A DNA stretch of 64,000 bases from Candidatus Latescibacterota bacterium (lineage in GTDB: Bacteria > Latescibacterota > UBA2968 > GCA-2709665): contig CBDCOX010000002.1 of NCBI GenBank assembly GCA_965219995.1, forward strand, positions 1,551,397-1,615,396, in the 5' to 3' direction. The notes under the pieces are model-generated. The model did not search any database, had not been told where the DNA came from, and saw only the letters and a list, made by a program, of their open reading frames with translations. The translations under genes were made by a program, and so were the position numbers. Each line of letters begins with the position of its first letter. Position 1 is the first letter of the stretch. This document shows positions 35,228 to 56,807 of the stretch, one piece after another.

Positions 35228-35268
35228 CGTTGCTTCCTCAAGTTATGTTGATTCTATCTTCCCATTTT

Positions 35269-35354
35269 ATATATCGTCCTCGCAGGCTGCGAACCTGCGA
35301 AGCGGGTTGAGCGAAGGCGCGAATACGCAGGAGCCACAGCCCGTCGTGTTATAC
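35269..35354 (-). repeat. family A attC-like imperfect palindrome (A5)
   Basis: Minus strand: GTATAAC-ACGAC-...-CGCAGCC-TGCGAGGAC-GATATAT; centre GCGAAGCGGGTTGAGCGAAGGCG matches the other copies; lies upstream of the transglutaminase-like gene. Confidence 0.5.
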
Positions 35355-38590: not shown

Positions 38591-39550
38591 TCATCCTCCC
38601 ATCATGTCCGGTTGAGGAAGTCCAAGTTCCTGAATCGTCCACTCAAGACCTGTAATTAGATGCGCCCTCTGCAGTTTGCGAACCAACGTTGTATGAGGCA
38701 GGTCCGGCAACCCTGCACGCGAAGCGAAATAACCCGTAACGTACGACGCCAGGTGACCCGCGCCCGCAAGGATATCCCGTGGTGGCGGTCCACCCTCGTG
38801 GCGAAGGCCGGGCAGCCAAAAGGCAATGTCGAGGTCGGGATTGCCGGAGCAGGCGTTGTTCCAGTCGATCAATACAGCCCGGTCGGCGCGAAAGCAGATA
38901 TTGTCACTTCTCACGTCAAGATGGACAAGCGCCTTGCCTTCCGGTTCAACGCGATCGTGCGCCTCCAGAAGGGTGGGTAGACACTCTGTCAACCACGATT
39001 CGCTTGCAACGCGTATCGACAGGAAGGCCTCGGGGTGCTCCGCAACGTCGTGCCAACCTCTATGGGCAAAGGCCTCGCGATATTCAGGCACACTCGCCTG
39101 GCTCCCATGTATCATTGCCAGGCTGTCAAGAACCATATCGATACCTGAGGTCGTCCAGGGCGGAGGCCATAGGTTCCCGGACAGATCCTCCAATATCAGC
39201 AACGGAGGTTCCTCCTCGTCCCACGCAAGAGCGGCCGCCATGAAATCGCCGGAAAGTTGGCGATAGATCGAAATCTCGGAATGTAGCCACCTACTGGTGC
39301 GCCGGTCCGTCGCACACTTCGCAAATGCCGTGTTTCCGTCCCGGAAATTTACGATTCTTCGGCAGGCGTTTGTGTAACCTCCCTGAACCGGTAGCAGCCG
39401 GTCCACTTCTCGTCCGGTCAGATCCGCTATTCGCGATTCAAGTACTTCGCAGCTATAATCCATGGCCCGCCTGAAGGAGATAACAGACAACGTGGCGCCG
39501 TATTGCGTACCTCGAAGGTGATTGAACAAGACCAGCGCGTCATCCGTCAA
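38591..39550 (-). CDS. APH-like phosphotransferase
   Basis: Catalytic loop ALVHLDVRSDNICF, LIDWNNACSGNPDLDIAFW. Confidence 0.75.
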   Translation of the reverse strand: MTDDALVLFNHLRGTQYGATLSVISFRRAMDYSCEVLESRIADLTGREVDRLLPVQGGYTNACRRIVNFRDGNTAFAKCATDRRTSRWLHSEISIYRQLSGDFMAAALAWDEEEPPLLILEDLSGNLWPPPWTTSGIDMVLDSLAMIHGSQASVPEYREAFAHRGWHDVAEHPEAFLSIRVASESWLTECLPTLLEAHDRVEPEGKALVHLDVRSDNICFRADRAVLIDWNNACSGNPDLDIAFWLPGLRHEGGPPPRDILAGAGHLASYVTGYFASRAGLPDLPHTTLVRKLQRAHLITGLEWTIQELGLPQPDMMGG

Positions 39551-39616
39551 GCTAAGGACAGGCTTTGCCGCAAAGCGGAAGCCGGTTGTCAGTCGGTATA
39601 CGGGGTTTTGCGGAGC

Positions 39617-40237: not shown

Positions 40238-40290
40238 TATGCCAAACCAGAATTCAAGATTGAAAAGGGATGGAAACTCCGGTGTATTGC

Positions 40291-40548
40291 TCAGTTCGGC
40301 GCTTGCGCAAAGGACTCGACGGATGACGTGTACGCGAGGCTTCCGGTCTGCATCGCATTCAAAACCTTCGACAAGTCGTCACCGCCTCCTGCGACCTGAT
40401 CAAGTCGATATGCTTCGCGCAGCCGCTCGAGCTCAGGATGTGAGACCTCGTATTGGAAGCCTGGCGCCGACTCGTCCGGTAACGAATCAAACTCGTCAAA
40501 CAAGCGTAAGAGCCCGCAGTTTAGCCTGAACTGGTAATTCATCGTCAC
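40291..40548 (-). pseudogene. internal-deletion remnant of a transglutaminase-like paralogue
   Basis: The N-terminal 60 aa (MNYQFRLNCGLLRLFDEFDSLPDE..) and the last 14 aa (AYTSSVESFAQAPN) match 34331..35227. About 645 bp is missing, with CTGC microhomology at the junction near 40349. Confidence 0.75.
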
Positions 40549-40597
40549 TGCCTCAAGTTATGTTGATTCTCTCTTCCCACTTTATAAATCGTTCATC

Positions 40598-40684
40598 CGT
40601 TACCGAACCCCGGGAGCACAGCGAAGTGGGTTGCCGGAGGCCAAGCCGCCACCGGCCCCGCAGCGCAACACCGTGCTGTTAGAC
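40598..40684 (-). repeat. family A attC-like imperfect palindrome (A1)
   Basis: Minus strand starts GTCTAAC-AGCAC-GGTGTTGCGCTGCG; the TAA stop of 40679..42127 is inside GTCTAAC; the distal arm is degenerate (..GTTCGGT). Confidence 0.6.
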
Positions 40685-42127
40685 GGTGTCGCCCCCTGCA
40701 TTCAGATGCTGATCAGCAAATCTTTGGTAGACATCAGAGTCCGGTTTGCTCGCGCTGTGGAGCCAATTCACTGATGTCGCCATCATATAGGGACGCCACA
40801 TTGGACTTACGATTCCGTAATTTTGGAATATCGCGACTGGGAACTTGTAGTCGTGTGCGTCAGGGTTGGCCTTTCTCTGGACAAGCTGACGCGATCTGCG
40901 CAAAAACGTGTCCAGGCCAAACGCCTTCTTGCCATATGTGAACGCCAACTTCTCCGCTTCTTCAATTCCAGACCTGTCCTCTATCTGTTGCCTCATCTCT
41001 CGACTTGGGAGCAGCGAGAACACTTCCTCCGTCGCGTCCTCACTCGATTCAATGCCTTCCTTCGGGGCAAGGTCCGTAATCTTCCTGTCCCGCAAATTCC
41101 CGTGTTCGTGCTCAATGCCAATAAAGTTCGCGACCCATCCCACCGCTTGCAACAGAACGAAGAGCCGAGTCGTCTGACTCACAGTATCCTCGAACGCATA
41201 GTGCATCGCGTTGGCTACGGTATTCGAATGCAATGGACGCGTGTTAATGCCTCCGGATCCTGCGTATCCCCCCTGTTTATGTCGGTGCATGAACTCACCA
41301 GCCGAAAGGAAAACTGCGTCCCAGACTGCTCCGGCAGGCACCCCAGAATCGACTATCTGACTGTACGCCATATCAGTGGCGCGATCCATCTCGCCAGCGC
41401 GAATCTCCGAAAGCAACTCCAAAGTGGAGGTCTCATCGAAGCCTGCTCTCACCCAATCTGGCGCCAAACTCGAAGCCCTCGTGGCTCGTTCCATGTTCTC
41501 TCGGTATGGTTGCGAATCCAAGTCCCCAACGCGAGACATCAGATCCGATACGATGAATCGAAGGATTGGCTCAGAGTAGTGCCATCCCACGGTTTGGAGA
41601 CTTCGCCAACAATTAGCGACAGCTATGATCTTGTGGCCGATGAAGCCCCATTCCTTCGCCCCATAGTGCCAGAGTTCCTCGATAATGTCACGCGGGCTCC
41701 ACGACCTACTCAGCCCAATCAGGGATCGCTCGGCTCGCCCTTGATCCCAGGAGTCCATCGCTTCTCTGAATTCCAGCAATGCTTTATCGCCCGTTGGGTA
41801 TACGCCTTCCAGAGCGTCACGTGGCGGCTTTGCGTAATTCTCTTGAGCCCTCTTCAGGCTGTCGAGACCCCAAAAGACAGGGATGAGTCGATCTGCCCCA
41901 ACTGAATCCAGGCTCATCTGATGAGCGGAATAAACCAGATACACTTCGTGATGCGTGCCTTCACAGGAACTGGCGGCAACCAGTAGGGCTGCAAGTGCCT
42001 GCCTGTACGTGAGCCCCTTTCTGAACTCGTCGGCAAGCATCTCAACCGCTCCTTCACGCGGCACATCTATCATTCGCTTGACAATGGGCTGAAGAGCCTC
42101 GCTCAGCTCTGTATGTCGTAGCGTCAT
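40679..42127 (-). CDS. hypothetical protein (482 aa)
   Basis: Long ORF with GAGGTGA RBS 6 nt before the ATG; no family recognised. Confidence 0.6.
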   Translation of the reverse strand: MTLRHTELSEALQPIVKRMIDVPREGAVEMLADEFRKGLTYRQALAALLVAASSCEGTHHEVYLVYSAHQMSLDSVGADRLIPVFWGLDSLKRAQENYAKPPRDALEGVYPTGDKALLEFREAMDSWDQGRAERSLIGLSRSWSPRDIIEELWHYGAKEWGFIGHKIIAVANCWRSLQTVGWHYSEPILRFIVSDLMSRVGDLDSQPYRENMERATRASSLAPDWVRAGFDETSTLELLSEIRAGEMDRATDMAYSQIVDSGVPAGAVWDAVFLSAGEFMHRHKQGGYAGSGGINTRPLHSNTVANAMHYAFEDTVSQTTRLFVLLQAVGWVANFIGIEHEHGNLRDRKITDLAPKEGIESSEDATEEVFSLLPSREMRQQIEDRSGIEEAEKLAFTYGKKAFGLDTFLRRSRQLVQRKANPDAHDYKFPVAIFQNYGIVSPMWRPYMMATSVNWLHSASKPDSDVYQRFADQHLNAGGDTV

Positions 42128-42157
42128 GGGTTCACCTCATACCTATTGGGCGATACC

Positions 42158-42249
42158 GTCTAACGTCTCGCCGGTTTGCGAACAGCGAAGGTGGTTGCCC
42201 AAGGCAAAGGCGATAGTAGCCGTCGCAGCGCAACACCGTGCTGTCAGCG
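42158..42249 (-). repeat. family A attC-like imperfect palindrome (A2, best copy)
   Basis: Minus strand: CGCTGAC-AGCAC-GGTGTTGCG-...-CGCAAACC-GGCGAGAC-GTTAGAC; the GTTAGAC box is 30 nt upstream of ATG 42127. Confidence 0.65.
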
Positions 42250-42286
42250 GACGTGGCATCCTGGTCGGGCCTTACAATGCAGACCG

Positions 42287-42895
42287 CTATTCAGACAGAA
42301 ACCGTTGCCAGCGATGACCCTCGGGATACAAGACTTCCAACCCGGCTCCCAACCATCTCTTTGCCTCGGCGGACATCAGCGGCAGGCAGGTCTGAAAGTC
42401 CAGGTCATCTTTCGAACGAGGATTCTTGGCTTTGTGCAGAAGCTGGACCTCAATCCGTATACAGGGAACACTCCCGTATGCAACGATCAAGTCGCCTCGC
42501 TGCCCGCCAATCAGTCTGCTGCGCTTGCTGAACCACCTGTCGCCTTCGCTTTCGGTCAACATGATCTGAAGCTGCCATACCTGTATGCCGGCATGGCCCC
42601 ATATGTCATGTATCCCGTAAGGCAAGTATTCTGATTCGGCCCATGGTCGCAATGAACCGGGCGGATCGGCCGCGTACAGATGCCAATCCGAGAGCCAGCG
42701 CTTTACCTCGAGTTGTTGATCCCGGTACACGATGACGTCAATATCACCGTGGTCCCGTACACGGGTTCCCACGAACTGCTCTACCGCATGGCCGCCGGCG
42801 AGTCCCCACATGAAAGGAGCGTTGGCGAACAATTTCGTCAACTCCTTGACGGACAAGGGTTTCCATTGGCTGAAGGGAATCTCAGGAGTGGTCAT
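42287..42895 (-). CDS. nucleotidyltransferase-fold protein (aminoglycoside/lincosamide NTase-like)
   Basis: 202-aa ORF; GLAGGHAVEQFVGTRVRDHGDIDVIV (G-G..x..D-x-D minimal NTase motif). Confidence 0.6.
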   Translation of the reverse strand: MTTPEIPFSQWKPLSVKELTKLFANAPFMWGLAGGHAVEQFVGTRVRDHGDIDVIVYRDQQLEVKRWLSDWHLYAADPPGSLRPWAESEYLPYGIHDIWGHAGIQVWQLQIMLTESEGDRWFSKRSRLIGGQRGDLIVAYGSVPCIRIEVQLLHKAKNPRSKDDLDFQTCLPLMSAEAKRWLGAGLEVLYPEGHRWQRFLSE

Positions 42896-42922
42896 ACAGT
42901 TCGCATTCTGCGCACAAACGAC

Positions 42923-42949
42923 GTCCGCTAATGCGCGAGCATTGCGGAC
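42923..42949. other. stable hairpin between the sigma-fusion gene and the NTase gene
   Basis: GTCCGC-T-AATGC GCGA GCATT-GCGGAC: 11-bp stem, one bulge, 4-nt loop. It starts where homology between the two NTase 5' flanks ends. Confidence 0.5.
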
Positions 42950-43043
42950 GCAGCACCTTGTCGATCAGTGTATGAGATTCCTGGTACTCAGTCAACGACT
43001 CTCGCAGGTCCGTTTGGGCGAAGTGACGAAGGAGCGGAGAATC

Positions 43044-44858
43044 TTATAGATCTTCATTCGGCATCTGCGGATGTTGGGCAGGAAAGAGCGCATCCAGGAG
43101 CTCTGCCGCATCTCCTGTAAACAACATGCCCAACCGTTCGGCAATTTCACCAGGTGGTTCTTTTCCAATGATGATTTGTGCAAACTCATGACCACATTCA
43201 ATGGTGTTTTCTGCTTTGCCGCCGGGCTGCACAGAGATTTCACTGTTGTCGATGGATAGCACTGCAGACTGGTCCGGGATAGAAATCTTCAATGTGCCCA
43301 TGAAATCTCCGAGACCCGATTTTCGTATACGTCGAGACAGTTCAGGTGCGATCTTACTCAGCGTCGTCTCCAGGTTGATGATGCGAATCTGGTTCCCCGT
43401 CCGACCATTGTGGTTTCTGGCTGAATAAAGATGAGGCAACTGTCGCACGCGTCGTGCCAGCGCGCTGCGCCAGGGGAGTCGGACGAATTGCACCCTGGGT
43501 CCCTGGTATTGCCGGGCAAGTTGCCCTAAAACGCGCAGGATCTGTTCCGGATCACCGGCTGAATCCGTATGACGCAGGTCGCGTCCCTCGTGATCTTTCT
43601 CTGTATTCGGGCCATCGTAGAGATAACCCACCGCACGTCCGGTTTTATCGTTGAAAATGTACGCTGTCCACGGATCGTCGTCTTCCGGCGGGCATTTGCC
43701 TCTTCGGTATGTTGGACGGACGGTCGTGCCGGTCAATCCGTCGTGCCATCGATTGTGAAGTTCGGCCAGGTCTCTGCGCCCGTGAATCACGTTGACATGT
43801 ACTTCCTCCAGCTCTATTTCCGGCGCTGCTTCAGGCAGGTGCTCGGTGTCTATAAAATACGTCTCCTGATCCGGCCAGGCAAGCACGTAGCCGAAATTCG
43901 CAAAGCGATCGAGCGGTTCGGTACGTGTACACGACATATCATAGCCATGGGCATACATGGCGTCCAGCGCCGCCTGAATTGTTGCCGCGTAGATCCCCTC
44001 ATCCCGATAGTCGGGATGCACGGTCGGCAGATTGATGCCCCCGGTCCGGACTGTTGCGCTGCCGATGCGCATCGACAGATCGTAAATGCCCGCGTGCGTG
44101 ACCACATCACCATCCATCGTTCCGATCCGCGACGTCAGCCAGTCGTAGTGACTGTGCGCGATGCGTCCTGCGCGACACTGACGGCTGATGGCGTTCCAGC
44201 GCCTATCCAGCAACTCATAGATATCTTCGCTATGATCCGCTTTATCCGGCGCCAGGATTTCTCGCACACGGTCAATGAACCGCTCGTCCCGCGAAGGCCG
44301 GTTCTCATGTATATTGTCCTTCACCATATCGAATAGCCTTTCCTTGAGCCGTTTCCGCGCCGACCGCAAACGGTTCTTCACGACGGCGACTGACACACCC
44401 AGAAAAGCGGCCACTTCCCGCTGTGAATAATCCGAAATGTAGAACAAAGACACGGCCTGACGTTCGGTTTCGGGCAATGTGTCGATCGCTTCTCGCACAA
44501 GGCACCGCATCTCGTTTTCTTCTGTTGTCCGATCCGGATGCCGGTCTTCCGATGCGATCTCGACAAGCTGTTCCATGGATACGATCTCGACCTTCTTTCC
44601 CCGGCGCGTGATCCGATCGCAATATTTGAACACGATCCTGCGCAACAGGGCAGGAAAAGCAAAGACATCGTACACGCGCTCCAGATTCACCCAGGCCTCT
44701 GTAAACGCCTCCTGCGCCGCGTCCTGCGCCAGGTGAAAATCCCTCAACAACGCGAATCCGTATCCCACGGCGAGATCCTGGAAGTGTGTCACAATCTGCT
44801 CGTAGGCCTTCAGATCTCCTTGCTTCGCGCGTTCGAATATCGGTTTCAGTGTCTCCAT
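43044..44858 (-). CDS. ECF-type sigma-70 factor fused to an Eis-like GNAT acetyltransferase with SCP2-like C-terminus
   Basis: aa 1-190: region 2 (DAAQEAFTEAWVNLERV) and region 4 (LPETERQAVSLFYISDYSQREVAAFLGVSVAVVKNRLRSARKRL). aa ~230-604: GNAT core (GINLPTVHPDYRDEGIYAATIQAALDAMYAHGYDMS..FANFGY) and SCP2-like tail (IRIINLETTLSKI..LKISIPD..LFTGDAAELLDALFP). Confidence 0.7.
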   Translation of the reverse strand: METLKPIFERAKQGDLKAYEQIVTHFQDLAVGYGFALLRDFHLAQDAAQEAFTEAWVNLERVYDVFAFPALLRRIVFKYCDRITRRGKKVEIVSMEQLVEIASEDRHPDRTTEENEMRCLVREAIDTLPETERQAVSLFYISDYSQREVAAFLGVSVAVVKNRLRSARKRLKERLFDMVKDNIHENRPSRDERFIDRVREILAPDKADHSEDIYELLDRRWNAISRQCRAGRIAHSHYDWLTSRIGTMDGDVVTHAGIYDLSMRIGSATVRTGGINLPTVHPDYRDEGIYAATIQAALDAMYAHGYDMSCTRTEPLDRFANFGYVLAWPDQETYFIDTEHLPEAAPEIELEEVHVNVIHGRRDLAELHNRWHDGLTGTTVRPTYRRGKCPPEDDDPWTAYIFNDKTGRAVGYLYDGPNTEKDHEGRDLRHTDSAGDPEQILRVLGQLARQYQGPRVQFVRLPWRSALARRVRQLPHLYSARNHNGRTGNQIRIINLETTLSKIAPELSRRIRKSGLGDFMGTLKISIPDQSAVLSIDNSEISVQPGGKAENTIECGHEFAQIIIGKEPPGEIAERLGMLFTGDAAELLDALFPAQHPQMPNEDL

Positions 44859-45183
44859 CTCGCTCCTCTGATTATGAAGGCCTTCACCGGTAATATCCCA
44901 ATTGGGGTGGATTGGGTGTACTTATCCTATGTATTTTGGTCTCCTGAGAGGAACAGGAAGATCGCAAAATATTAATAAACAATGGTTTAAAAGATTCCAA
45001 AAGACGAACGCCACATTGTGCTATTCGATGATATTGGGCCTGCCCGGAGAGTGTTCGGGGCTGGCAGTCGGAAGGAAATGAAGGGAGGGCCTAAAAAGGC
45101 TGGGTTGTTGGGGATTATTGTCAATGCCTGTTATATGTCGTCTTTTTCAGGGCGGTCAAATGTCGGCCTGCATTCCCGCCACT

Positions 45184-45265
45184 TGCTAACCCGCCCGGCT
45201 CTATTGGCCGGGCTGCCCGCGGGACCAGGGCGAGAATGGGCCGCAGCGGCAACAAGCTGTTACAC
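45184..45265 (-). repeat. family A-related attC-like element (A6)
   Basis: Minus strand starts GTGTAAC-AGCTT-GTTGCCGCTGCGG; internal hairpin GCCCGGC..GCCGGGC; distal TGCTAAC (plus strand); 35 nt downstream of the MTase stop. Confidence 0.45.
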
Positions 45266-45300
45266 GATTATGATTCACAACCGACACCGGATGGTGCCAT

Positions 45301-46068
45301 TCAAGTCGGCCTTTCCTTTTGCGCTTCGATCAGGAATTTCCTTGCCGTAAACGTCAACTCATCGCCGCCATCAAGTCGATGTTGCAGGCTTAACAGGTGC
45401 TGCATGTGGGTTTCGACTGAAAACCCGGGTACCAGCCAGGGAACAGCCTTCAAGTAATAGACCACGGCGCCCACGTCGGCGAAAGCCAGCCGGCCAGACC
45501 ATTCTTCGGCAGTGAAAATGGTCAGGCCCGTCGTTCTCAATTGAGTCACAACCCTTTCAAGTGTGGATCCGGGCCATTGCGGTTTAACGTCAAACGCTGC
45601 CAGTAAGTCACAGGCCCATAACCCGTGAACCTGCTGTGTCAGGAACGTGCCGCCAGTCGTGAGAATACGGGCAACTTCATTAGGGTTGAATGCAGAGTGG
45701 CGATTTAGAACAAGATCAAACTCGCTATCGGGAAAAGGCATCGGATCGCAATCAGTCAATCGAACATCTGCAACTTTCGCTCCCAACGGAACGAGACGAT
45801 TTGTTGCCAACTTGAGGTGAGGTGCATATTCCTCCTTCGCCACAACCTCTTCAGGCCAGAATTCCTGTAAGTTCAGGAACCGCTCACCACCACCTGTACC
45901 CAGGTCAATGACAGATGAACAACGACGCAAGAGCTCGGCAGCCCGTAAAGAATAAGACCATGGCGTCTTCTCTTCGAACATCCTGCCATCCAGCCAGGAA
46001 AAGTCCCATCCCGAGAAAGGCTGTTCTTCTTCACCCTTCCACGTATCAACAAGCTTGTCCAAGCCCAT
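45301..46068 (-). CDS. class I SAM-dependent methyltransferase
   Basis: 255-aa ORF; motif I VIDLGTGGGERFL. Confidence 0.75.
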   Translation of the reverse strand: MGLDKLVDTWKGEEEQPFSGWDFSWLDGRMFEEKTPWSYSLRAAELLRRCSSVIDLGTGGGERFLNLQEFWPEEVVAKEEYAPHLKLATNRLVPLGAKVADVRLTDCDPMPFPDSEFDLVLNRHSAFNPNEVARILTTGGTFLTQQVHGLWACDLLAAFDVKPQWPGSTLERVVTQLRTTGLTIFTAEEWSGRLAFADVGAVVYYLKAVPWLVPGFSVETHMQHLLSLQHRLDGGDELTFTARKFLIEAQKERPT

Positions 46069-46081
46069 ATTGCACGCTATC

Positions 46082-46199
46082 CGTGAACATCGAAGGCCAA
46101 ATTATCGTTCAGGCACTCGTTTTACGTGTTGTGCATTCCCGCAGCCGCGAATCGATTAGGCGAGGGGAATGCCCGAAGTAGAAAACGCTGCTGTTACGC
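46082..46199 (-). repeat. family A-related attC-like element (A7, weak)
   Basis: Minus strand starts GCGTAAC-AGCAG; stem GCATTCCC..GGGAATGC; left boundary uncertain. Confidence 0.3.
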
Positions 46200-46282
46200 C
46201 ACGTGGAAAAATCGAAAACATAGCCCACTCCGGTGATTCGCTTTCTTGAGGTGGCGACTTTGTTGGCAGTGTTTCACATCAC

Positions 46283-47037
46283 TCATCCAGGTCTGGTTGG
46301 TAACTTATCTGCCATGTCCGATATCACGCTGATGCAGAGCCCCATAAGATCCTGAGCGCTTTCCACATCATACCGAGCCTCCGGATGTTGAGTTGGGTTC
46401 CGGTATTCCACCCTCACTAGGTCGAGCGTGTCCAAAAGGTTCGCTGGAGGCTTGTTCCGTGACTTAGACCTTAGCGCGTAAACCATTGCCCCCACGTTGG
46501 ATTCTCAAGGCGATTCCGTCGGATGTGGAGCCGGTAGTAGGTTCGCAATACATCCTCGGTCGCCCGGAGCCAGTGAAACGCAGCAGCAGTGCCTTCACCA
46601 AAGAGGACGCATCGACCAGCACTCCCGATATCGAATTGGGCTAGGTCAGGCAGCTTCTGAAAGACGCTGTCGCGAAAGAACTTGGCCGGCTCGTTGAGTA
46701 GCCAGGTGGTGTTATATCTTCGTTCTGGCAATATGTAGATGGACTTCGTTCTGGACTCAGCGAAGATGATCTGTTCAAGGATCGCGATGTTCGCAACAAT
46801 GTCCTTGGCTCTGGGCCCGAGCAACTCAGTTGGTTCGCACTCGGAAAGCTCTGTCTTGATAGCAATTAGCTTGGCCATTCCACTGATTGACACGGTGAGG
46901 CCAGCGCCCACGATCTGTCGCTCAAGAGCTGTGATGTTCCGAACCGCATAGTCGATGTCGTTGGACGCACTGGTATGGCGAAGGTGCCTAATCAATAGAC
47001 CCACATGAATCAGTGAGTAACTGTTTCTTGATTCCAT
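46283..47037 (-). pseudogene. HEPN-like protein, frameshifted in a C5/G5 run
   Basis: ORFs 46471..47109 and 46283..46495 overlap at the homopolymer 46489-46493; one extra G would join ..NPTWG to AMVYALRSK... The C-terminal part carries R-x4-H (YRNPTQHPE) after helix AAFHWLRATEDVLRTYY. GAGGA RBS before ATG 47037. Confidence 0.45.
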
Positions 47038-47101
47038 GTAATCCTCACGCTTTACGCTGGATCGGTTAAGAACGAAAACGGTGTTAAAAGAAGATCGATC
47101 G

Positions 47102-48043
47102 CTATTCAAGACTCTCGATGTGAGGCTTTAGCGAAGAGACGAAGTTGCCCATTGCTGTAATCATGACATCCTGTATGTGAGGCCAATTGTCTTCTTCAGA
47201 TTTCAGCCCGCCTTCTTCAATGACATGTCTTACCCTCGAAGCTCTTCGCTGATCCAGCCGCTCCCATTGAAGCTCCCGTCCAAACCGCTTTTCAATTTGC
47301 TCGCGCTTTGCCGCCAGCGAATCGAAGTGTCGCTTGTTCTTCTCGCCGTCGCCGGTGTCGATATAGAGTTCAACAGCTGTCCTGTGCTTTAGCCAGACCA
47401 CATAATTGAAGGAAAGACCTGACTTGCCTGCCCCGGCGCCGATCCAATGTTCTTTAGTGGGCGATCTAGAACTGTGGATGGCAACGCCATGGCTCTTGGC
47501 ACGTTCCAGCAACTGTTGCCAGAATCTGATTCTAAGATGATGTCGCTCTGCAAGATCCTTCTTGGATTGACCGATGGACGTTGGCTCCTCACTAGGTCCA
47601 ACAATCACGGTGAAGAGCGGCGCGGGGTCTGAATTCCCAATCTGAAAGGCTGTCAGCTTCACCAAATAGAATGCTGTATCGGGTGGAGTCGACTCGTTCA
47701 ACCAGGCGATTGCTCTTGCATGTTCTGGTCGAGCGTGACTGGTGATCCAGACCGCGGTTTTCGCATTTATATTTGAAAGATAAGTAAGAACTTGCCCAAG
47801 GTGCTTGTGATCCGTCTGTTCAATTTGGTTTTCGATCACAACCACCTCACCGCTACCATCCTCGGCAACCAGATCGATCTCGAAATCCCCCGCAGATTTC
47901 TCTTTCTGGACTTCGGCAAGTCTGATGTCGAGCTTATCAGCCAGTACTTCGATGTTTTGCTCTAGCCACTGGGAGAAACCTCGTTCTTCATTCTCCCACA
48001 CTTTCCGTAGCGGCACCTCATCCAAATTTCCAATACGTGTCAT
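47102..48043 (-). CDS. PD-(D/E)xK nuclease-like protein with DUF4268-type C-terminal domain
   Basis: FEIDLVAEDGSGEVVVIENQIEQTDHKHLGQVLTYL (D..E-x-Q core plus HLGQ..TY) and C-terminal FWQQLLERAK..WIGAGAG..LYIDTGD..NKRHFD..WERLD. Confidence 0.6.
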   Translation of the reverse strand: MTRIGNLDEVPLRKVWENEERGFSQWLEQNIEVLADKLDIRLAEVQKEKSAGDFEIDLVAEDGSGEVVVIENQIEQTDHKHLGQVLTYLSNINAKTAVWITSHARPEHARAIAWLNESTPPDTAFYLVKLTAFQIGNSDPAPLFTVIVGPSEEPTSIGQSKKDLAERHHLRIRFWQQLLERAKSHGVAIHSSRSPTKEHWIGAGAGKSGLSFNYVVWLKHRTAVELYIDTGDGEKNKRHFDSLAAKREQIEKRFGRELQWERLDQRRASRVRHVIEEGGLKSEEDNWPHIQDVMITAMGNFVSSLKPHIESLE

Positions 48044-48297
48044 CTGTTGAAGCTCCCCCCTTGTAGTTTGGATTACGTAACCTCAGACTTTGTCGTGATT
48101 CTTCGGTCACTTCGATATGGCCAACTAGAACACGGCAAGAATGCGGAAGTTCTCTAACAATTCAGGCCTACCCTATATATACCCATCGTATCGCGTAAAA
48201 GGACGGTACGCCGTCCGCGTTCAATGAAAGCTTCCACAAGTTCACCGCCATTCGGTGTAGAAATGCCGGGGAAGGCGTCCAAAACACGGCGACAACA

Positions 48298-48537
48298 TTA
48301 ATCATTTCCGCCGATCGTTACATCGTTCGTGCCCTGCACCCAGCCCTGTACCAACGGCAGTTTCATACGAGCCATCGGGGCGGCGTCGGTAGTGTCACGG
48401 ATCGCCCCAGTCAGGCCACCCATGATCGGCATAATGGAGCCACCTGGCCTACTGTTCGTCCAGCAGTGCGTACAGGGTTGAATTCCATCCGCCAATCGTA
48501 CCGAGCCGACCATTGTCTCAATTGGAGTTCGACTCAA
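48298..48537 (-). CDS. hypothetical small protein (79 aa)
   Basis: ORF overlapping the upstream small ORF by 4 nt; no family recognised. Confidence 0.35.
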   Translation of the reverse strand: MSRTPIETMVGSVRLADGIQPCTHCWTNSRPGGSIMPIMGGLTGAIRDTTDAAPMARMKLPLVQGWVQGTNDVTIGGND

Positions 48538-48776
48538 TCAATGTCCCGGATCGTTGCGGAAGCAGTGGACACTTTCTTGAGTACCTCAGTTAGCTCCAAC
48601 GCGTCGGACTCATAGGCGACCCATAGGCAGTGTTCGCCCAGTCTCGGGATGGCGAACCACCGCTGCGTCTCTGGGCAATCGATTTCGTCTATCTTCTCAG
48701 CACTCTCGAGTATTGTGACATCGGGCCTTGTCAGAGGAAACGGATGATTTGCTATCATACCGTTTTCGAGAATCAT
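48534..48776 (-). CDS. hypothetical small acidic protein (80 aa)
   Basis: ORF translationally coupled (4-nt overlap) to 48298..48537. Confidence 0.4.
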   Translation of the reverse strand: MILENGMIANHPFPLTRPDVTILESAEKIDEIDCPETQRWFAIPRLGEHCLWVAYESDALELTEVLKKVSTASATIRDID

Positions 48777-48962
48777 GGCTTTCTCTCGGATGACTTGGCG
48801 AAACTTCAGGCCACTTCACACGTTGCGAAATTTGTACTCGTGACAAGGCACAAGACATTTGTGCGGCCGCGACGCCCGCGCTCGCCGGTTTGAGGGGTCG
48901 GGATGGTGTTGGTAACGCGGTCGTGGTGTTACATCTGAAGTTGGCGATTGCACTGAAACTTG

Positions 48963-49907
48963 CTATCTGGGTACCTCACCCAAGTTGTCGGAAACATCAA
49001 GACGATCGCTTACGCGTTGGGCCGCCATCGAAATCGCTTCGGCAACCGCTTGGGTGCCCTGCCCCGAGAGATTGGGGAATGCAGAGACGGCGAGGTAGCG
49101 ATCTAGGTGTCCCCACAAGTGTCGTAAGACTTCTTGGCCGTAGGTCGTTAGTGAGACTATGATGTCTGGAACCATGCAGAGTTCGTACCACATCAGTTCG
49201 AATTCGCTGAAAAATGGATCAGTTATCCTGCTACCCCAGCATTTGACAACACATCGATGGATGAATTCATAGGCTTCTGAGCCTATCGTTATGCCGCCAT
49301 TGTCCCCAGCCATTCTAACCACTTCCGCGACTCGACACAGACGCAACTCAAGATAAGTCGCAGAACGGTTGGTGCAGGCTAACAGAAATTCTATTCCGGA
49401 TATATGCCCTTGCCTAACTGGAAGGATCGCCTTCTGAAAGCCAAGGAGTGTGTCATCGACGGATGGGAGAACTGTATCGTCACGCGCCAGCTCTAAGAGA
49501 TCCTCTCGAGCACTTTTTTCGAAGTAGGAATCCCTACGCAGTAAAATTGGCCCTTCGTTCGCCAGCTGATGCTTGACCCTAGCATAGATCGTTAGATCCT
49601 CGGATGGATCGTGAAGAATGAGGACGACTGGAAGATTTAGGCGTTGCCAGTATCGCCTATGCCTCTTGCTTGGGTAGTACTTGACGTGCATTGAGTTACT
49701 TTGACGGAAGTAGCTTTCACCTGACTTGACCTGAACTGCGATAATGGATCCCGTACTGACTGCAGACTCGGGCGCAAGGAATTCGACCTGTCCGTCGATT
49801 CCCAGATCGGAGCTTGGCGTAGCGCGCCATATCGCGTCCATCTCCGCACAGACAGAGTGGACTTTCGCAAGCCCTCTATGTTCTTGAGTAACATTGCTGG
49901 GCCGCAA
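48963..49907 (-). CDS. DUF4365 (restriction-endonuclease-like) domain protein
   Basis: N-terminus SDLGIDGQVEFL..GSIIAVQVKSGESYF matches the DUF4365 pattern; ~200-aa uncharacterised C-terminal domain. Confidence 0.55.
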   Translation of the reverse strand: MRPSNVTQEHRGLAKVHSVCAEMDAIWRATPSSDLGIDGQVEFLAPESAVSTGSIIAVQVKSGESYFRQSNSMHVKYYPSKRHRRYWQRLNLPVVLILHDPSEDLTIYARVKHQLANEGPILLRRDSYFEKSAREDLLELARDDTVLPSVDDTLLGFQKAILPVRQGHISGIEFLLACTNRSATYLELRLCRVAEVVRMAGDNGGITIGSEAYEFIHRCVVKCWGSRITDPFFSEFELMWYELCMVPDIIVSLTTYGQEVLRHLWGHLDRYLAVSAFPNLSGQGTQAVAEAISMAAQRVSDRLDVSDNLGEVPR

Positions 49908-50044
49908 AGGGTGAAGATCCTTGTTTTAATGGTGGGCGCTGCTTAGCAGAATCGGACAACCCTCCAAGCTCCAGCCACATACCGTTCTCGCCAATTTTAG
50001 GTGACGTCCCGCGCACTTGCGAACTCAGGTCTTTCAGCGCTTTG

Positions 50045-50449
50045 TCATGTTTTTTTTAACTCTGCTATTACTTCGTTGATATAGCGCAGTCTAAATCTTT
50101 CAAATCTATCAAGAACATAACAATCAATTGGTCTTACCTCATATGAAGGCATCCTTAGGAGTTCATCGAGCAACTGATCTCTGCTTGCAAGGAATAGCTT
50201 CCCATACAGATAGCCATATACACACGATTTCGCTAGGTGTTCATCGTAAAGGAATTCATAATTGGGATTGAATTTGATTTTTTCCTTGATTTCTTTGCAG
50301 TAGTTTTCTGCGTCTTGGGCACGAAAACGGTATATGCTGCTGATTTGATCTTTGTCCCATTGTTCCATCGTGAAGTTCCTTTCTTCTTCAATGGAATTGT
50401 TCCGCTGCGAGAAGGGATAGAAGCTGCGAACCTTCCCCTCCACGGACAT
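50045..50449 (-). CDS. hypothetical protein, AT-rich orphan
   Basis: 134-aa ORF in the most AT-rich stretch of the window; Lys/Glu/Tyr-rich; no family recognised. Confidence 0.45.
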   Translation of the reverse strand: MSVEGKVRSFYPFSQRNNSIEEERNFTMEQWDKDQISSIYRFRAQDAENYCKEIKEKIKFNPNYEFLYDEHLAKSCVYGYLYGKLFLASRDQLLDELLRMPSYEVRPIDCYVLDRFERFRLRYINEVIAELKKT

Positions 50450-50473
50450 TCCGACTGTTTCGGGACGCTCCCC

Positions 50474-50556
50474 GATGATAGCGACTACAGCGAAGATCGG
50501 CGGTTTGTGTCAGGACGAAATTACGATGGGTTGCAGCAGCAACAGGCTGTTACATT
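50474..50556 (-). repeat. family A-related attC-like element (A8; homologous to A6)
   Basis: Minus strand starts ATGTAAC-AGCCT-GTTGCTGCTGCAACCC; contains ACAGCGAAG..GGCGGTTTG; left boundary uncertain. Confidence 0.4.
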
Positions 50557-50589
50557 ACGATGATTTCCAATCGATACAAACGGAGTCTT

Positions 50590-51201
50590 TCAAGTTTGCC
50601 CCACCTTCTGCGCTTCGATCAGGAATCTCCTTGCTGTGAACGCCAACTCATCGTCGCTATCAAGTCGGTGTTCTAGCCCCATCAGCGGCAGGCACGTCTG
50701 AAAGTCCAGGTCATCTTTCGAACGAGGATTCTTGGATTTGTACAGAAGTCGAACCTCAATCCGTATACAGGGAACACTCCTGTATGCAACGATCAAGTCT
50801 CCTCGTTGCCCGTCATTCAGCCTGCTGCGCTTGCTGAAACACCCGGCGCCTTCGCCTTCAGTCAACATGATCTGAAGCTGCCACGCCTGTATGCCGGTAT
50901 GGCCCCAGATGTCATGTATCCCGTACGGCGAGTATTCTGACTCCGCCCACGGCCGCAATGAGCCGGATGGATCGGCCGCGTACAGATGCCAATCCGAGAG
51001 CCAGCGCTGTACGTCGATTTGCTGATCGCGAAACACGATGACGTCGATATCACCGTGGTCCCGAAAACGCTTTCCCACGAACTGCTCAACCGCATAGCCA
51101 CCGGCGAGTCCCCACAGGAAAGGAGCGCCAACGAACAATTGCGTCATTTCCCGGACGGATAGAGGCTGCCAATTGCTGTAGGGAATCTCAGGAGTGGTCA
51201 T
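50590..51201 (-). CDS. chimeric nucleotidyltransferase: NTase body plus tail of the methyltransferase gene
   Basis: aa 1-170 are co-linear with 42287..42895. The last ~30 aa (LEHRLDSDDELAFTARRFLIEAQKVGQT) match the C-terminus of 45301..46068 (LQHRLDGGDELTFTARKFLIEAQKERPT), and so does the 3' flank. Confidence 0.6.
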   Translation of the reverse strand: MTTPEIPYSNWQPLSVREMTQLFVGAPFLWGLAGGYAVEQFVGKRFRDHGDIDVIVFRDQQIDVQRWLSDWHLYAADPSGSLRPWAESEYSPYGIHDIWGHTGIQAWQLQIMLTEGEGAGCFSKRSRLNDGQRGDLIVAYRSVPCIRIEVRLLYKSKNPRSKDDLDFQTCLPLMGLEHRLDSDDELAFTARRFLIEAQKVGQT

Positions 51202-51231
51202 AAAGTTCGCATTCTGCGCGTGAAAGATGTC

Positions 51232-51323
51232 CGCTAACGTGACTCACGATATGCGATCCTGTGAAGCAGGTTGCCGAGGGCCAAGCCGCCGAAGGCGGCG
51301 AAGCGCAAACCAACGCGTTAGAA
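51232..51323 (-). repeat. family A attC-like imperfect palindrome (A4)
   Basis: Minus strand: TTCTAAC-GCGTT-GGTTTGCG-..GCCGCC TTC GGCGGC..-CGCATATC-GTGAGTCAC-GTTAGCG. Confidence 0.6.
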
Positions 51324-51339
51324 GACGTGCGTAAAGCAT

Positions 51340-52111
51340 CTATACGGCAAGCGAGTCGTAATTCTCATTAAGCCACGTGTTTTCTTCTTCCAGTTCCGCA
51401 AGATCCCCACGCTGGTAGAAGATGGACCAGGGGAGGAGTCCTTGCCTGCCCAGAGTCTCGGTCCTTCGGTACTCTTCCAGTTGCAGCTCGTTCAAGGTGT
51501 CTAAAATCGCGTTGGCGTCCGTGCCGAACGTGTCAGAAACGACTGCTAACCTGGACCTGAAATCCGGCTCTTCGGAAAATCCAGCCTCTCTCCAGTGGTC
51601 TTCGCCTCGGAGAGGCACCGCGTACCAGGCAAAACTGGCTGACATCGCAGAGAGGATCACCTGGTTCAGCGAAATCCCAGTCGATTACTCCTTTGAAGGT
51701 TCGCCCTTCCCAGACAGTATTCCAGGGTCCAAGATCCCCGTGTCGGATGGTCATCCCCGGTTGCCAGTTCACATTGGGAACAACCCATTCAGCATCCTCG
51801 GGAGGCTCGAAATCCCTCACTGCATCGTGATATCCGGACAGGAATCGCGCGACCTCAGCCAGGCCCTCTTCCTCAAGCATCACGTCCGGCCAAGGTCGCC
51901 GGGCAACCTCGCCAGGTATAAACGAAAGCACCTCGCGCCCGAGTTCGTCGAATCCGAGGGCACGAGGAACACCTGAAAAGCCAACCGCCTCCAGGTAGCG
52001 CAGCAAGGAATGGACGGCCGGAGTCCACCGATGGACAGGTCTGCGCACGGTGTCTCCAATCCGCACAACGGGATTGACACAACCCCGGGCGGATTCGCCC
52101 TCTTGCATCAT
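51340..52111 (-). pseudogene. APH-like phosphotransferase, frameshifted
   Basis: 51533..52111 carries the N-lobe and catalytic loop (TIRHGDLGPWNTVW, VIDWDFAEPGDPLCDV). The family-typical continuation SASFAWYAVPLRGEDHW is in another frame (51340..51660); the shift is near 51640-51650. Confidence 0.6.
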
Positions 52112-52150
52112 CGTCAGATCCTCCCGAGCCTGATAAGTGATTACCGCCCT

Positions 52151-52864
52151 TCAGGCCGGTGTTCCGCGCCAGAAATCGTTGTACGCCGCCAGGGGCCCGT
52201 CCCCGTGCGGCCCGGTAGCCAGATCCAGCCCCCCAAAGAGATAGACGGACTCGCCCCCCACTGCCATAACGGGGATTCGCCTGACACCGGGACGTTCGGC
52301 GCCGGCAGAGTAGTCCTTCGCACCGTTGTGTGGATACAGACAGTCCCACCGGCCGGCACGAAGATCGTACTGCCACAGATCGTTCAGCTGGGGGTGCTCC
52401 CCTTTCCCTCCTGCAAATCCTCCGAACAGATACAGGTGATCTCCGATTACAGCGTGTCCCAGCCCGTACCGAGGGGAAGGCCGCGTTACATCATCCGCCC
52501 GGTTCTCCTGAATGCAGGTCCAGGCGCCTTTGTCGGGATCGAATTCCCACAGATCGTTGAAGAACTCCGGCGTTCGCCCCTGACTGTCCCGACCGCCCCA
52601 CAGGTAGAGCCTGCCGTTCCAGCCGGCAAGCACGGGACAGTATCGTTTCGGCGGCCAACCGTCGCGCCCATTCGATGCAGGCCCCAGGTACTCCCATCTC
52701 CCGGCCGGTGCCCCGTAGGTCCACAGCTGTGCGTGCGTCATCGCGCCATGCCCCCCCATCAGATACAGGGAGTCGCCCAGAGCAACCGCCCCCATCCCGC
52801 CGTACCCGGCGGGGCGATGCCCCTCCGCCGCAATTCCTGATGCGCGCCCGTCGTCGGGCTCTAA
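52151..52864 (-). pseudogene. Kelch-repeat protein, C-terminal part (split by IS)
   Basis: Kelch blades (LYLMGG, RLYLWGGRD..FNDLWEFD, HLYLFGG..LNDLWQYD, VYLFGG). The frame continues from 54418..54835 once the IS and one CTAA copy are removed (..WELL|EPDDGRASG..). Confidence 0.8.
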
Positions 52865-54417
52865 CCTCAATGTGAAATAAATCAGGCTGCATTCTGTAGT
52901 GCGTTGCAGATTTTGCGGTATTGTTTTTCGGTGTGCTTGTTGCGTTGGAGACGCAGGGTAAGCCGCCCTTCGGGTCGGATAAGGTGTCCGGCGCGGTTGA
53001 TGATCTCGAACCGGAGGGTGCGTATGGATTTGAGGGGCCATCGGTTGGTATTTTTCAAGGTGCGATTGCGTTGTGTCAGTCCGGTTTCGATCTGGAAGTT
53101 GACCAGGAGGTTGTGCGCGAGAATGACGAACTGTTGCCAGGCACTATTGGCGTTGTAATCGTGTGTGGGGATGGTATCGAAGCTGAGACCGGTCTTGAGT
53201 TCCCCGATGGCTTTTTCGTGCATGCCGCGCCCTGCCATGAAGCGCCAGAGCGCGCGCAACTTGAAGGGTAGATTGCTGGCCACGGCAGAGTATTCGAAGG
53301 TGCCGTCATCGGGATCGAACAGGTCCAACTGGTAATTCTTGCGGGTTTTATGGAAGACGCGTTTTCGAAAGATGGCAATGTTGAGGGTGCGTTCCCATTT
53401 TTTGACCGTCAGCGTTGACGGAAAGCCGTCGACGCCTTTCTCGATGCGCTGCCAGTTGCTGCATTGACGGATTTTGTGCTGTAAGTCCAGGCCATTCCAA
53501 AAGGGAACCTTGATGGCATACGAGGCCTTGTTCTTGATAAGCGTGTTCACCACATCCTCTTTGAAAAAGTCGCCATCCATGCGGAATCGCAGGGAGTAGG
53601 CGTGTCCCAGGCTTTCTTTGATCTGAGAGAACACATCCTTTAGAAACTCGATGGAGGCGCTGCCATCGTTGATGTTGCCGGGCCGGTTGTGCGCGCGGAG
53701 AAAATGACCACTGTCGGCCAGATAAGCGGTAATCGGATAGTAACTGGGGACTTTGCGATGATGCGGATTATACCCACGGCGGGCGCCGTCGACGCGTTTG
53801 CCCGTGCACAAGACGGTGCCGTCCACGTCGATCGTCAATTTTCGTGCGCGCAACAACTTGATCTTATGAGCAACCACGGCGGCGTTGAGGGCTTTCAGGG
53901 CGTCGAGACCCTTGTCGGTAAACCGTCTCAGAAACAGGCTCATGCTGCGGGGCGTCGGTAGATCCTTCAGACCGCAGAACCGCTGCAGCAGGGGATCTCC
54001 TTTCAAGAAATCCAGATGCCGCAACCGACGGCCGCCTACCACCAGCAAACCCAACAGAACACGGGAAAGGCTCACCACACCGAAGTCGCCGCCAAAGCAC
54101 GCACTGCCCAGGTGACGGCGCAATTGTCTGTTCCAATCGATGGTTCGCAAATACCGCATCAACAGCTCCAAACCCGCATACGAGGTGAGGCCTTCACCCG
54201 TGAATTCGATCTTCAAATCGTCGTTGACACGCGCGTGCAAATCCGCTTTCTTTCGTCTCACTGTACGTGGCCTTTCGTTTTGGGTGAATTGGGGGTTTCG
54301 TCGCTTCCCAATATACCAAAATGGAAGGCCTTTTCCTATTGATAAATATAGACTTATTCGTGTTTTCGCCTGGTCTTCAATGCTCCGAATTTCATCAACA
54401 TTATTTTCGCATTGAGG
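52865..54417 (-). mobile_element. IS1380-family insertion sequence (1553 bp)
   Basis: Inverted ends CCTCAATGTGAAATAAATC and (reverse complement) CCTCAATGCGAAAATAATG; 4-bp direct repeat CTAA at 52861-52864 and 54418-54421; single transposase ORF. Confidence 0.85.
52882..54261 (-). CDS. IS1380-family DDE transposase
   Basis: 459-aa ORF; N-terminal LTSYAGLELL, TIDVDGTVL..GARRGYNPHH, LRFRMDGDFF, RGMHEKAIGELK: same layout as IS1380/ISEcp1-type transposases. Confidence 0.85.
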   Translation of the reverse strand: MRRKKADLHARVNDDLKIEFTGEGLTSYAGLELLMRYLRTIDWNRQLRRHLGSACFGGDFGVVSLSRVLLGLLVVGGRRLRHLDFLKGDPLLQRFCGLKDLPTPRSMSLFLRRFTDKGLDALKALNAAVVAHKIKLLRARKLTIDVDGTVLCTGKRVDGARRGYNPHHRKVPSYYPITAYLADSGHFLRAHNRPGNINDGSASIEFLKDVFSQIKESLGHAYSLRFRMDGDFFKEDVVNTLIKNKASYAIKVPFWNGLDLQHKIRQCSNWQRIEKGVDGFPSTLTVKKWERTLNIAIFRKRVFHKTRKNYQLDLFDPDDGTFEYSAVASNLPFKLRALWRFMAGRGMHEKAIGELKTGLSFDTIPTHDYNANSAWQQFVILAHNLLVNFQIETGLTQRNRTLKNTNRWPLKSIRTLRFEIINRAGHLIRPEGRLTLRLQRNKHTEKQYRKICNALQNAA

Positions 54418-54835
54418 CTAACAGCTCCCACGAGGCTGTCTTCGGATCATAGGCCCAGAGATCGTTCAGCTTGATCTCCCCCTTTCCGGGCCCACGCACC
54501 GAGGACCCGCCGAAAAGGTAAAGCCTGCCGTTCATTGGCAGCCAGGTCGTGAGCTTCCGGGTGCACGGTCTGGTATCGGACGGTCTGAACCCGATGCGCC
54601 CATTGTGGTCTTCCAACCGCGTCCACCGGCCTCGACCCGGGTCGTAGCGCCACAGGTCGTTCAATGAGCCCTGGACGGAAAGATCTCCAGGCCCTTTCGG
54701 CCGGCCGTACATCACTTTTATCCCGCCGAACAGGTAGACGCATCCATTGTAGCTCAACATCCCGCCGAAGGCCGCCCGCCTGCAGGGTACATCCTCGGCC
54801 TGCTCCTGGTCCGGATACAGCAGTTCCCACTTCAT
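54418..54835 (-). pseudogene. Kelch-repeat protein, N-terminal part (split by IS)
   Basis: MKWELLYPDQ.. with blades VYLFGG..LNDLWRYD, RLYLFGG..LNDLWAYD; the reading frame runs into the IS end. Confidence 0.8.
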
Positions 54836-54959
54836 AGTGGACCTCCGCACCGCCTGACTTGTGATTCTGCGGAGAAAGTTCGGCATATTCCATTCGTAGC
54901 CGATCCCCGAGTCGGCGAAGCGACGAGTCCCGCAGATAAGTCCCGCAACGGGCGCATGC

Positions 54960-56336: not shown

Positions 56337-56456
56337 CGCGTCACCTCTCTCTGGGGTTACCCCAGTTTAGTGGACGGTTCCTTAACTGCACATTCAATGA
56401 GCATCCACAGCCACTTCGGTCTTCGCATGCAACTACGGAATCTCCTTTAAGAAATG

Positions 56457-56752: not shown

Positions 56753-56807
56753 CAAAAACCCGATACAGTTTATTCGCGGCGGATGATTGTTGAACCCACA
56801 ATTGGCT

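Follow-up and report, generated by a model that had tools for sequence, protein, structure and literature searches.

The question raised by this locus is how a predicted nucleotidyltransferase (NT) gene came to end in the tail of a methyltransferase (MT) gene. The gene, NT2, lies in a stretch of 64,000 nucleotides, hereafter the window, from a Candidatus Latescibacterota bacterium (GenBank assembly GCA_965219995.1, contig CBDCOX010000002.1, positions 1,551,397 to 1,615,396), where many intergenic gaps hold an element resembling the attC sites of integron gene cassettes. An earlier note had described here two NT genes, NT1 and NT2, and a resident gene, MT, and had proposed that the NT units were duplicated with a boundary at the attC crossover point, one copy being then rebuilt by recombination between two different cassettes. 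In our judgement NT2 is most likely a fused cassette, formed by illegitimate, deletion-type joining of an NT and an MT cassette in a decaying attC array. The features on which this reading rests are the following; the covariance model is that of the element family described below.

50590-51201, minus strand: NT2, a chimeric open reading frame (ORF) of 203 aa matching Pfam family PF10706
50680-51237, minus strand: portion of NT origin, made up of the leader and codons 1-174 of NT2 (blastn, 87.6% to NT1)
50678-50682, minus strand: junction ...CTGATG/GGGCTA..., where NT-specific sequence ends at 50680-50682 and MT-specific sequence starts at 50679-50678
50590-50679, minus strand: MT-derived tail of 29 codons (GLEHRLDSDDELAFTARRFLIEAQKVGQT) and stop codon, from alignments to MT alleles
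50481-50589, minus strand: MT-derived 3' untranslated region (3'UTR) and degenerate attC remnant (A8 of the earlier note), whose R''/L'' half ATGTAACAGCCTGTTGCTGCTGC is homologous to MT-type attCs
45301-46068, minus strand: MT, the resident class I S-adenosylmethionine methyltransferase cassette gene (Pfam), a relative of the donor
45172-45271, minus strand: attC-like element after MT (A6 of the earlier note; covariance model 10.5 bits, E=1.3), in the expected place and on the expected strand
42287-42895, minus strand: NT1, an intact PF10706 nucleotidyltransferase of 202 aa with a family-native C-terminal tail (Pfam, homolog tails, structure model)

Junction, tail and 3' element of NT2

NT1 and NT2 are indeed co-linear paralogs with homologous 5' flanks, as the earlier note had it: in blastn they form a single ungapped block (42374-42931 with 50680-51237; 87.6% over 558 nt), which consists of a 36-nt leader and codons 1-174, and the proteins are 81% identical across residues 1-179. 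NT2 departs from NT1 after ..CLPLM (codon 174), exactly where that note had placed the divergence. Past this point 50526-50672 matches the end of MT at 45236-45383 (78% over 148 nt, E=3e-29, blastn), and the match runs from the tail through stop codon and 3'UTR to the middle of the downstream element. A low-complexity or chance similarity of the tails, which would have undone the comparison, is ruled out by this E value together with the non-coding sequence within the match.

The junction was fixed by laying eight NT and four MT alleles on NT2, several of them from related loci that we fetched and numbered with the letter L. NT-type sequence continues up to ...TGCCTGCCGCTGATG and MT-type sequence starts with GGGCTAGAACACCGACTTGAT..., the MT allele of L035 reading CTGTTAGGGCTGCAACACCGACTTGAC (also given as CTGTTAGGGCTG) at this place. 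The crossover lies at 50680/50679 with zero shared bases, or at most two (TG) if the donor had TTG as L007 does; the hexamers that meet there, CTGATG versus CTGTTG or CTGTTA, are similar, with nothing beyond. The NT part (50680-51237) and the MT part (from 50679) are joined inside their ORFs with no attC between them, which is what defines a fused cassette.

The distribution of the two tails gives the direction of the event. In the 119 listed NT homologs the alignment to NT2 ends at about 86-88% of its length, extended or frameshifted gene calls aside, and those inspected among them all have the tail of NT1 type. A search for MT homologs gave 2200 matches, the best 120 of which align over 96-100% of the query except for three gene calls that start later (82-91%) and nonetheless contain the C-terminal tail; all eleven inspected end in ..LQHRLDSGDELAFTARKFLIEAQKE..., that is, in the "HRLDSGDELAFTARKFLIEAQK" tail. 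Since the tail is native in the MT family and foreign in NT homologs, NT2 is the derived form, and it was the NT gene that acquired an MT tail. The converse possibility, that MT borrowed its tail from NT2, is rejected by the presence of the tail in every MT homolog inspected.

The resident MT is rejected as the donor as well, the tail region of NT2 being 78% identical to it versus 81-83% to the alleles of L003, L029 and L035. The donor would be an MT allele other than the resident one, and NT2 and the L035 MT allele have Gly175 in common. Recombination between two different cassettes, as proposed earlier, therefore holds for the NT/MT recombinant itself and fails for the resident gene as its source.

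The 3' element has a mixed character. MT-type sequence reaches into the centre of A8 (R'' ATGTAAC, AGC, an L''-like CTGTTGCTGCTGC, then CCATCG..CGTCCTG), and the 5' half of A6 is homologous to it. Beyond the centre A8 is shortened and has CTTCGCT in place of the expected GTT box, and as a whole it fails the attC family model (2 bits), so that mobility of the fused unit through the attC of its second cassette finds no support in A8. The claims that NT2 picked up the attC-like element of an MT unit, and that its 3' flank including A8 is homologous to the end of MT and A6, are thus correct for the recognisable 5' half and do not extend to the rest. A search of JGI metagenomes for relatives of the downstream 134-aa gene, made to locate where the fused unit ends on its 3' side, found none.

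Origin and state of the fused gene

The chimera is present in the sequencing reads. An independent contig of 2312 nt, obtained from four runs of the source sample, covers 50300-50725 and crosses the junction with zero differences at about 79x, with 46 nt on the NT side and 380 nt on the other, where MT-type sequence passes into the downstream sequence; the contig with the NT1 tail has a depth of about 76x, and 40-nt words common to both copies have approximately the sum of the two depths. The Sequence Read Archive runs in which the sequence occurs represent one host organism and sponge metagenomes, and the chimera is found in the source sample only. The search of public metagenomes for unrearranged versions, suggested in the earlier note, was successful: other sponge metagenomes hold unrearranged forms only, in which NT-type contigs leave NT2 at 50680 into the native tail and MT-type contigs leave it at 50672, continuing as MT coding sequence. 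No protein besides the window's own has the chimeric architecture in a collection of 5.8 billion proteins, and a degenerate pattern across the chimeric junction gave no match in JGI metagenomes.

We propose that NT codon 174 would have been joined in frame to MT codon 227 by illegitimate recombination with 0-2 nt of microhomology. In its likeliest form the event would be a deletion within one array in which the MT cassette lay downstream of the NT cassette, and it would have taken out everything from the NT tail and attC, across any intervening cassettes, up to and including MT codon 226. An illegitimate join is preferred over an attC x attC exchange because the junction is inside both ORFs, has 0-2 nt of microhomology and lies 3 nt off the nearest MT GTT. 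The order NT, one gene, MT is found in L029 and L035, and events of this kind have recurred here (remnants 40279-40592 and 56456-56753, the NT remnant of L003, and the 42-nt NT-like relic at 59393-59434). We infer that the deletion occurred in cis and independently of integrase, the cis step being the most parsimonious reading.

Other origins of NT2 have to be weighed against this one. A mis-join by the assembler, between the NT copies or between NT and MT repeats, can hardly be credited: exact 40-nt words common to both NT copies do break short-word assemblies, but the independent junction-spanning contig has zero mismatches and single-copy depth in four runs, and the junction shares at most 2 nt, an overlap so short that assemblers do not mis-join there. 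Gene conversion or patch repair, by which an MT tract replaced the NT 3' end with one end anchored by homologous pairing in the attC 5' half and the other resolved illegitimately in the ORF, is unlikely. It would require no loss of intervening cassettes, NT-type and MT-type attCs have the 5' half YTAACAGC..GTTGC.CTGCG in common, clear homology between NT2 and MT stops in the middle of the attC (50526), and the mosaic NT alleles described below, a sign of homologous exchange between copies, favour it somewhat; on the other side, the MT-specific CCATCG..CGTCCTG can be traced into the centre of A8, whose 3' half bears little likeness to either parent and has no GTT box, and a single junction is more parsimonious. 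Less probable still is a cut by the integrase IntI at a GTT-like secondary site in the MT ORF (CTG/TTAAGC or CTG/TTAGGG) followed by joining to the NT cassette. The MT junction does have GTTAAGC in the window allele, or GTTAGGG in L035, near the R' consensus GTTRRRY, and the literature counts illegitimate integrase events among the ways in which fused cassettes arise (PMC8876359); yet the NT-specific A and G of ATG persist 3 nt past the expected G/TT cut, so that the crossover is ATG/GGG, the NT partner has no GTT at the junction, and no integrase was seen in the window with an IntI1 query.

As to its present state, NT2 is probably a non-functional, immobile remnant; its loss of function is made probable by substitutions at invariant sites, a tail of low confidence in the structure model and a degenerate 3' attC. 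The private changes of NT2 number 14 nonsynonymous against 9 synonymous, compared with a pooled 44.5:51.5 in eight relatives, and include L91S, W121C and Q151R at sites 99-100% conserved in the listed NT homologs. In its AlphaFold2 model the predicted local distance difference test score (pLDDT) is 60-69 across the acquired tail and 66 for residues 121-130, compared with 94-98 in NT1, and the NT1 beta-strands 120-123 and 126-132 are not predicted.

A selected domain swap, in which NT2 would owe a new or retained function to its in-frame MT tail and the array serves as a platform for exon shuffling, is rather improbable in our view. The fusion is in frame, with the ORF intact and the catalytic GG...DxD core retained, and the pairwise ratio of nonsynonymous to synonymous substitution rates of NT2 is still below 1 (0.16-0.33). 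One third of random fusions would be in frame, however; the lost tail held the invariant W181/L182 and the nearly invariant H194/W196, invariant core sites are substituted, and the tail motif DSGDEL has become DSDDEL, although its Gly is present in every MT homolog inspected. Moreover, the acquired tail is modelled with low confidence, the chimera was found in no other sample or database searched, and the neighbouring genes are pseudogenes. It is likewise doubtful that we are dealing with a very large, undescribed attC array of sponge-symbiotic Latescibacterota, with a vertically inherited backbone and cassettes duplicated, exchanged, fused and eroded by microhomology deletions, in which the chimera is expressed and functional; if this were true, the NT::MT chimera would have caught integron arrays in the act of making new ORFs from shuffled cassette pieces.

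Several points count against NT2 as the decaying product of a deletion. No unrearranged parent array with NT, this MT allele and the 134-aa gene was found, a gap that bears on the cis-deletion step in particular. Because the shared 40-nt words flank both 293-nt NT bodies, short-word contigs alone do not prove which of the bodies goes with which tail, and this linkage rests on the original assembly. The nonsynonymous excess is suggestive and not statistically significant alone, while NT2 retains an intact in-frame ORF and the GG...DxD nucleotidyltransferase motif. Finally, the array extends past both ends of the window, in which the IntI1 query detected no intI, and it is at most a putative active integron.

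Fused cassettes are known, if rarely, from class 1 integrons, examples being blaGES-1/aacA4, blaOXA-10/aadA1 and ant(3'')-Ii/aac(6')-IId, and replication slippage or illegitimate integrase events have been proposed as their causes (PMC4670013, PMC8876359). Like these, the NT2 unit consists of two joined segments from which the attC of the upstream cassette has been lost, with the G/TT of the first cassette as its 5' bound and the attC region of the second as its 3' bound; in class 1 fused cassettes, too, the two ORFs are sometimes in frame. Unlike them, NT2 has lost 226 of the 255 MT codons together with its own end, so that only a 29-residue tail is left where those have two whole genes or a bifunctional product; the attC that follows the unit is degenerate, and the host is an uncultured Latescibacterota symbiont with a chromosomal array instead of a clinical mobile integron. 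The region reveals no new mechanism, being a case of fairly ordinary cassette decay. Its value lies in a natural example resolved to the base, with the G/TT boundary visible across many contexts and a fusion of which both parental forms can be compared. Its practical use is mainly in annotation, where NT2 is best marked as a fusion or pseudogene, and studies of cassette turnover can also draw on the case.

The NT cassette and the attC-like element family

A mobile past of the NT cassette is suggested by its boundaries, for which these further features are needed.

51228-51329, minus strand: attC-like element upstream of NT2 (A4 of the earlier note; covariance model 78.7 bits, E=1e-20)
42896-42932, minus strand: 5' end of the NT1 cassette, a 36-nt leader from TTAGCGGAC (first T at 42931), from alignment to relatives
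42154-42255, minus strand: native attC of NT1 (covariance model 99.8 bits, E=6e-27), with R' = GTTAGAC and R'' = GTCCGCTGAC

Eleven NT cassettes (NT1, NT2 and those of L001, L002, L004-L008, L029 and L035) were anchored on TTAGCGGAC. Identity to NT2 is 33-35 of 40 nt (83-88%) downstream of the anchor and 5-13 of 40 (13-33%) upstream, with the exception of L035, one of the nine relatives compared, where an indel breaks the ungapped count (17 of 40). As the earlier note had predicted, the 5' homology ends abruptly at a GTT box and does not decay gradually. At least six unrelated contexts are represented among the upstream sequences, which come from genomes of related Candidatus Latescibacterota and from sponge metagenomes; the base before TT is G in 9 of the 11 cassettes, and NT2-like contigs of other sponge metagenomes diverge at 51239, running into further different contexts. 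In the NT2 copy the boundary coincides with the R' box of A4, GTTAGCG at 51232-51238, whose crossover G is 51238; the box had been correctly located before.

It is a defining textbook property of integron cassettes that their homology starts at G/TT, and the 5' boundary of the NT cassette is, on this pattern, the predicted canonical G/TT crossover of an attC-like site. The claim to this effect gains from the number of contexts and from a further complementarity: R'' of the NT1 attC, GTCCGCTGAC (GTCCGCTAAC in L002 and L005), is the reverse complement of the cassette 5' end GTTAGCGGAC, as expected if the NT cassette was once circularised. The sequence common to NT1 and NT2 begins exactly at G/TT, which both copies would owe to their membership of one mobile cassette family. 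In position the boundary falls at the crossover box in both copies, the qualification being that NT1 is preceded by A at 42932 (ATTAGCGGAC) and not by the crossover G, its box being degraded to ATTAGCG; the A is confirmed by independent contigs of the source sample, and the syntenic copies of L004, L007 and L035 have G.

The duplication proposed earlier is not borne out. NT1 and NT2 differ by 12% (synonymous divergence dS about 0.31), and their closest alleles lie in other genomes (NT1 with L008, 93.7%; NT2 with L004, 92.0%). The alleles are also mosaic: NT1 (42374-42895) is 99.4% identical to L008 in nt 1-174 and 89-92% beyond, and NT2 (50680-51201) comes close to identity with L004 across nt 70-200 or so. 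Such mosaics are a sign of homologous exchange between cassette copies or genomes, and NT1 and NT2 look like two members of a circulating cassette family instead of a recent local duplication.

NT1 itself appears to be fixed in place, so that the sigma70/GNAT gene upstream and NT1 would behave as one unit, because the gene pair and its hairpin spacer are conserved across several genomes. The spacer has just a 30-nt hairpin in place of a full attC, and the same is seen in L003, L004, L007 and L035. In the window it occupies 42896-43043 (minus strand), with the hairpin GTCCGCAATGC-TCG-CGCATTAGCGGAC between the gene of a 604-aa sigma70/GNAT fusion and NT1.

Both NT proteins match Pfam PF10706 (Aminoglyc_resit; Aminoglycoside-2''-adenylyltransferase family) above the gathering cut-off of 21 bits (29.6 for NT1, 27.5 for NT2). 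The AlphaFold2 model of NT1 (pLDDT 95.5) forms the native tail as helices 176-189 and 197-200; this tail, S.EAKRWL..GLEVLYPEGH.W, contains W181/L182, invariant in the homologs inspected, and the nearly invariant H194/W196. No PDB chain was significantly similar to NT1 in a sequence search, and a fold search with Foldseek returned ANT(2'')-Ia, LnuA and the MenT1 toxin at probability 1.00 with template modelling (TM) scores of 0.54-0.67 (4wqk/5cfu, 4fo1, 8an5). The NT proteins thus share Pfam family and fold with aadB/ANT(2'')-Ia, LnuA and MenT1 and, like aadB, are borne on an integron-type cassette. They differ from these structures in being 14-18% identical, 25 residues longer and provided with a family-specific C-terminal helical tail; since identity to ANT(2'')-Ia is just 14-16%, no substrate can be deduced.

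The genes of the window are almost all on the minus strand, and the elements of about 100 nt in many of the gaps between them have a 5' YTAAC box, a 3' GTTAG box and an interior made of an imperfect stem, CGGT(G)TTGCG paired with CGCAAACCG, a bulged G and two small GC hairpins. Thirteen members from the window and related loci were aligned, and the structure was set by hand and then tested by pair counts: with the hand-set R''/R' and L''/L' pairing 85.8% of cells are paired, versus 28-41% when the 3' partner is slid. In seven pairs both partners have changed, and replacements of A-T by G-C in the terminal R''/R' helix are among them. These compensatory counts are supportive of a putative attC structure, short of proof, as the aligned sequences are related. 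A covariance model built from the 13-member alignment was used to scan the window and ten related loci. It finds eight members in the window at E<=0.013, every one on the strand of the genes, and 22 further members in the related loci, all co-oriented with genes; weak matches at 45172-45271 and 46115-46205 flank the MT gene.

Confident family members in the window, minus strand, from the covariance model: 63086-63189, 51228-51329, 42154-42255, 40582-40690, 39481-39597, 35265-35360, 34189-34292, 23480-23580

Core sites R''/R' are present, for example, as TTCTAAC...GTTAGCG at 51228-51329 and as CGCTGAC...GTTAGAC at 42154-42255, and crossover boxes are mutated at several sites (GTT to ATT or CTT). 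Other approaches were less informative: a naive attC finder combining AAC...GTT pairs with folding energy returned mostly intragenic false positives and missed true elements, single-sequence DNA folds of the elements are not distinctive (z-scores -0.2 to -2.5), and RNAalifold alone gave a weak consensus only. We read the genes as cassettes because of the inverted core sites, the conserved structure, the co-orientation and the 5' boundary kept across contexts, and the window is, by these signs, part of a long co-oriented array of predicted integron-type gene cassettes.

Relation to sedentary integrons and damage elsewhere in the array

Sedentary chromosomal integrons, such as the Vibrio superintegron with its paralogous cassettes, and clusters of attC sites without an integrase (CALINs) are the obvious systems for comparison. 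The array resembles them in being long and co-oriented, with small, mostly unrelated genes and a homogeneous attC family, and the part of it in the window contains paralogous cassettes, pseudogenes and an insertion sequence (IS). It differs from sedentary integrons in that neither intI nor attI nor Pc was seen within the 64 kb; an integrase was not found in the window or in the fetched related loci by tblastn with an IntI1 query, a weak negative (best E=0.8). In contrast with both kinds of system, attC sites are sparse (eight confident ones) and crossover boxes mutated, and blocks of the array are syntenic between the species-level relatives L003, L004, L007 and L035. The array may be part of a sedentary chromosomal integron or an attC cluster without integrase, and its organisation points to an array that would be largely fixed and decaying. 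The nearest cassette relatives are in metagenome-assembled genomes labelled Candidatus Latescibacterota, apart from two labelled Gemmatimonadota; a literature search gave no integron report for Latescibacterota, and the present data place an attC array in Candidatus Latescibacterota sponge symbionts.

How redundant cassettes are lost in such a sedentary array is illustrated by internal deletions at short homologies, mutated crossover boxes, frameshifts and an IS insertion. The remnant at 40279-40592 (minus strand), which adjoins the attC at 40582-40690 and lies downstream of it, is what an internal deletion has left of a copy of the 298-aa gene (34331-35227): 245 nt at its 5' end (84% identity) and 73 nt at its 3' end (89%) survive, some 640 nt have gone, and the junction has the overlap GCAG. 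A Kelch-repeat gene (52151-54886, minus strand) is split into 54401-54886 and 52151-53041 by an IS encoding a DDE_Tnp_1_4 transposase (ORF 52882-54261), and 56456-56753 (minus strand) is a patchwork of three pieces of this gene, from 54805-54901, 54537-54679 (96.5%) and 52146-52225 (94%). Directly upstream of NT2, an APH-family phosphotransferase gene (51340-52111, minus strand) is frameshifted into ORFs of 192 aa and 106 aa that overlap at 51533-51660; the frameshift is real, since the window and independent contigs of the source sample agree here without any indel.

NT cassettes are damaged elsewhere too. At 59393-59434 (minus strand), between adenosine-deaminase-like and metallo-beta-lactamase-fold genes, 42 nt are 86% identical to NT2 codons 124-138 and translate as RLRGGKRGDLIVISKS versus NT RLIGGQRGDLIVAYGS; the same piece with its flanks occurs in other sponge metagenomes, and it may be the relic of a third NT cassette. 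In L003 (8834-9200) just NT codons 1-29 are joined to 3'UTR and attC, the NT gene of L007 (3001-3522) has an in-frame stop at R83, the attC of L004 (3631-3731) is without its R'' box, and in L001 and L008 the attC downstream of NT is replaced by other sequence.

The left part of the window holds three copies of a different 44-nt repeat (..TTATCCTGT.CATCCTGTCCATCCATGTAAGT) at 7659-7702, 16703-16746 and 17932-17975, and in this part the attC family model has no match. In the related array L003 a group II intron reverse transcriptase (RVT_1 and GIIM; 16987-18312) lies antisense to the cassettes, which is the orientation reported for group IIC introns that target attC sites.

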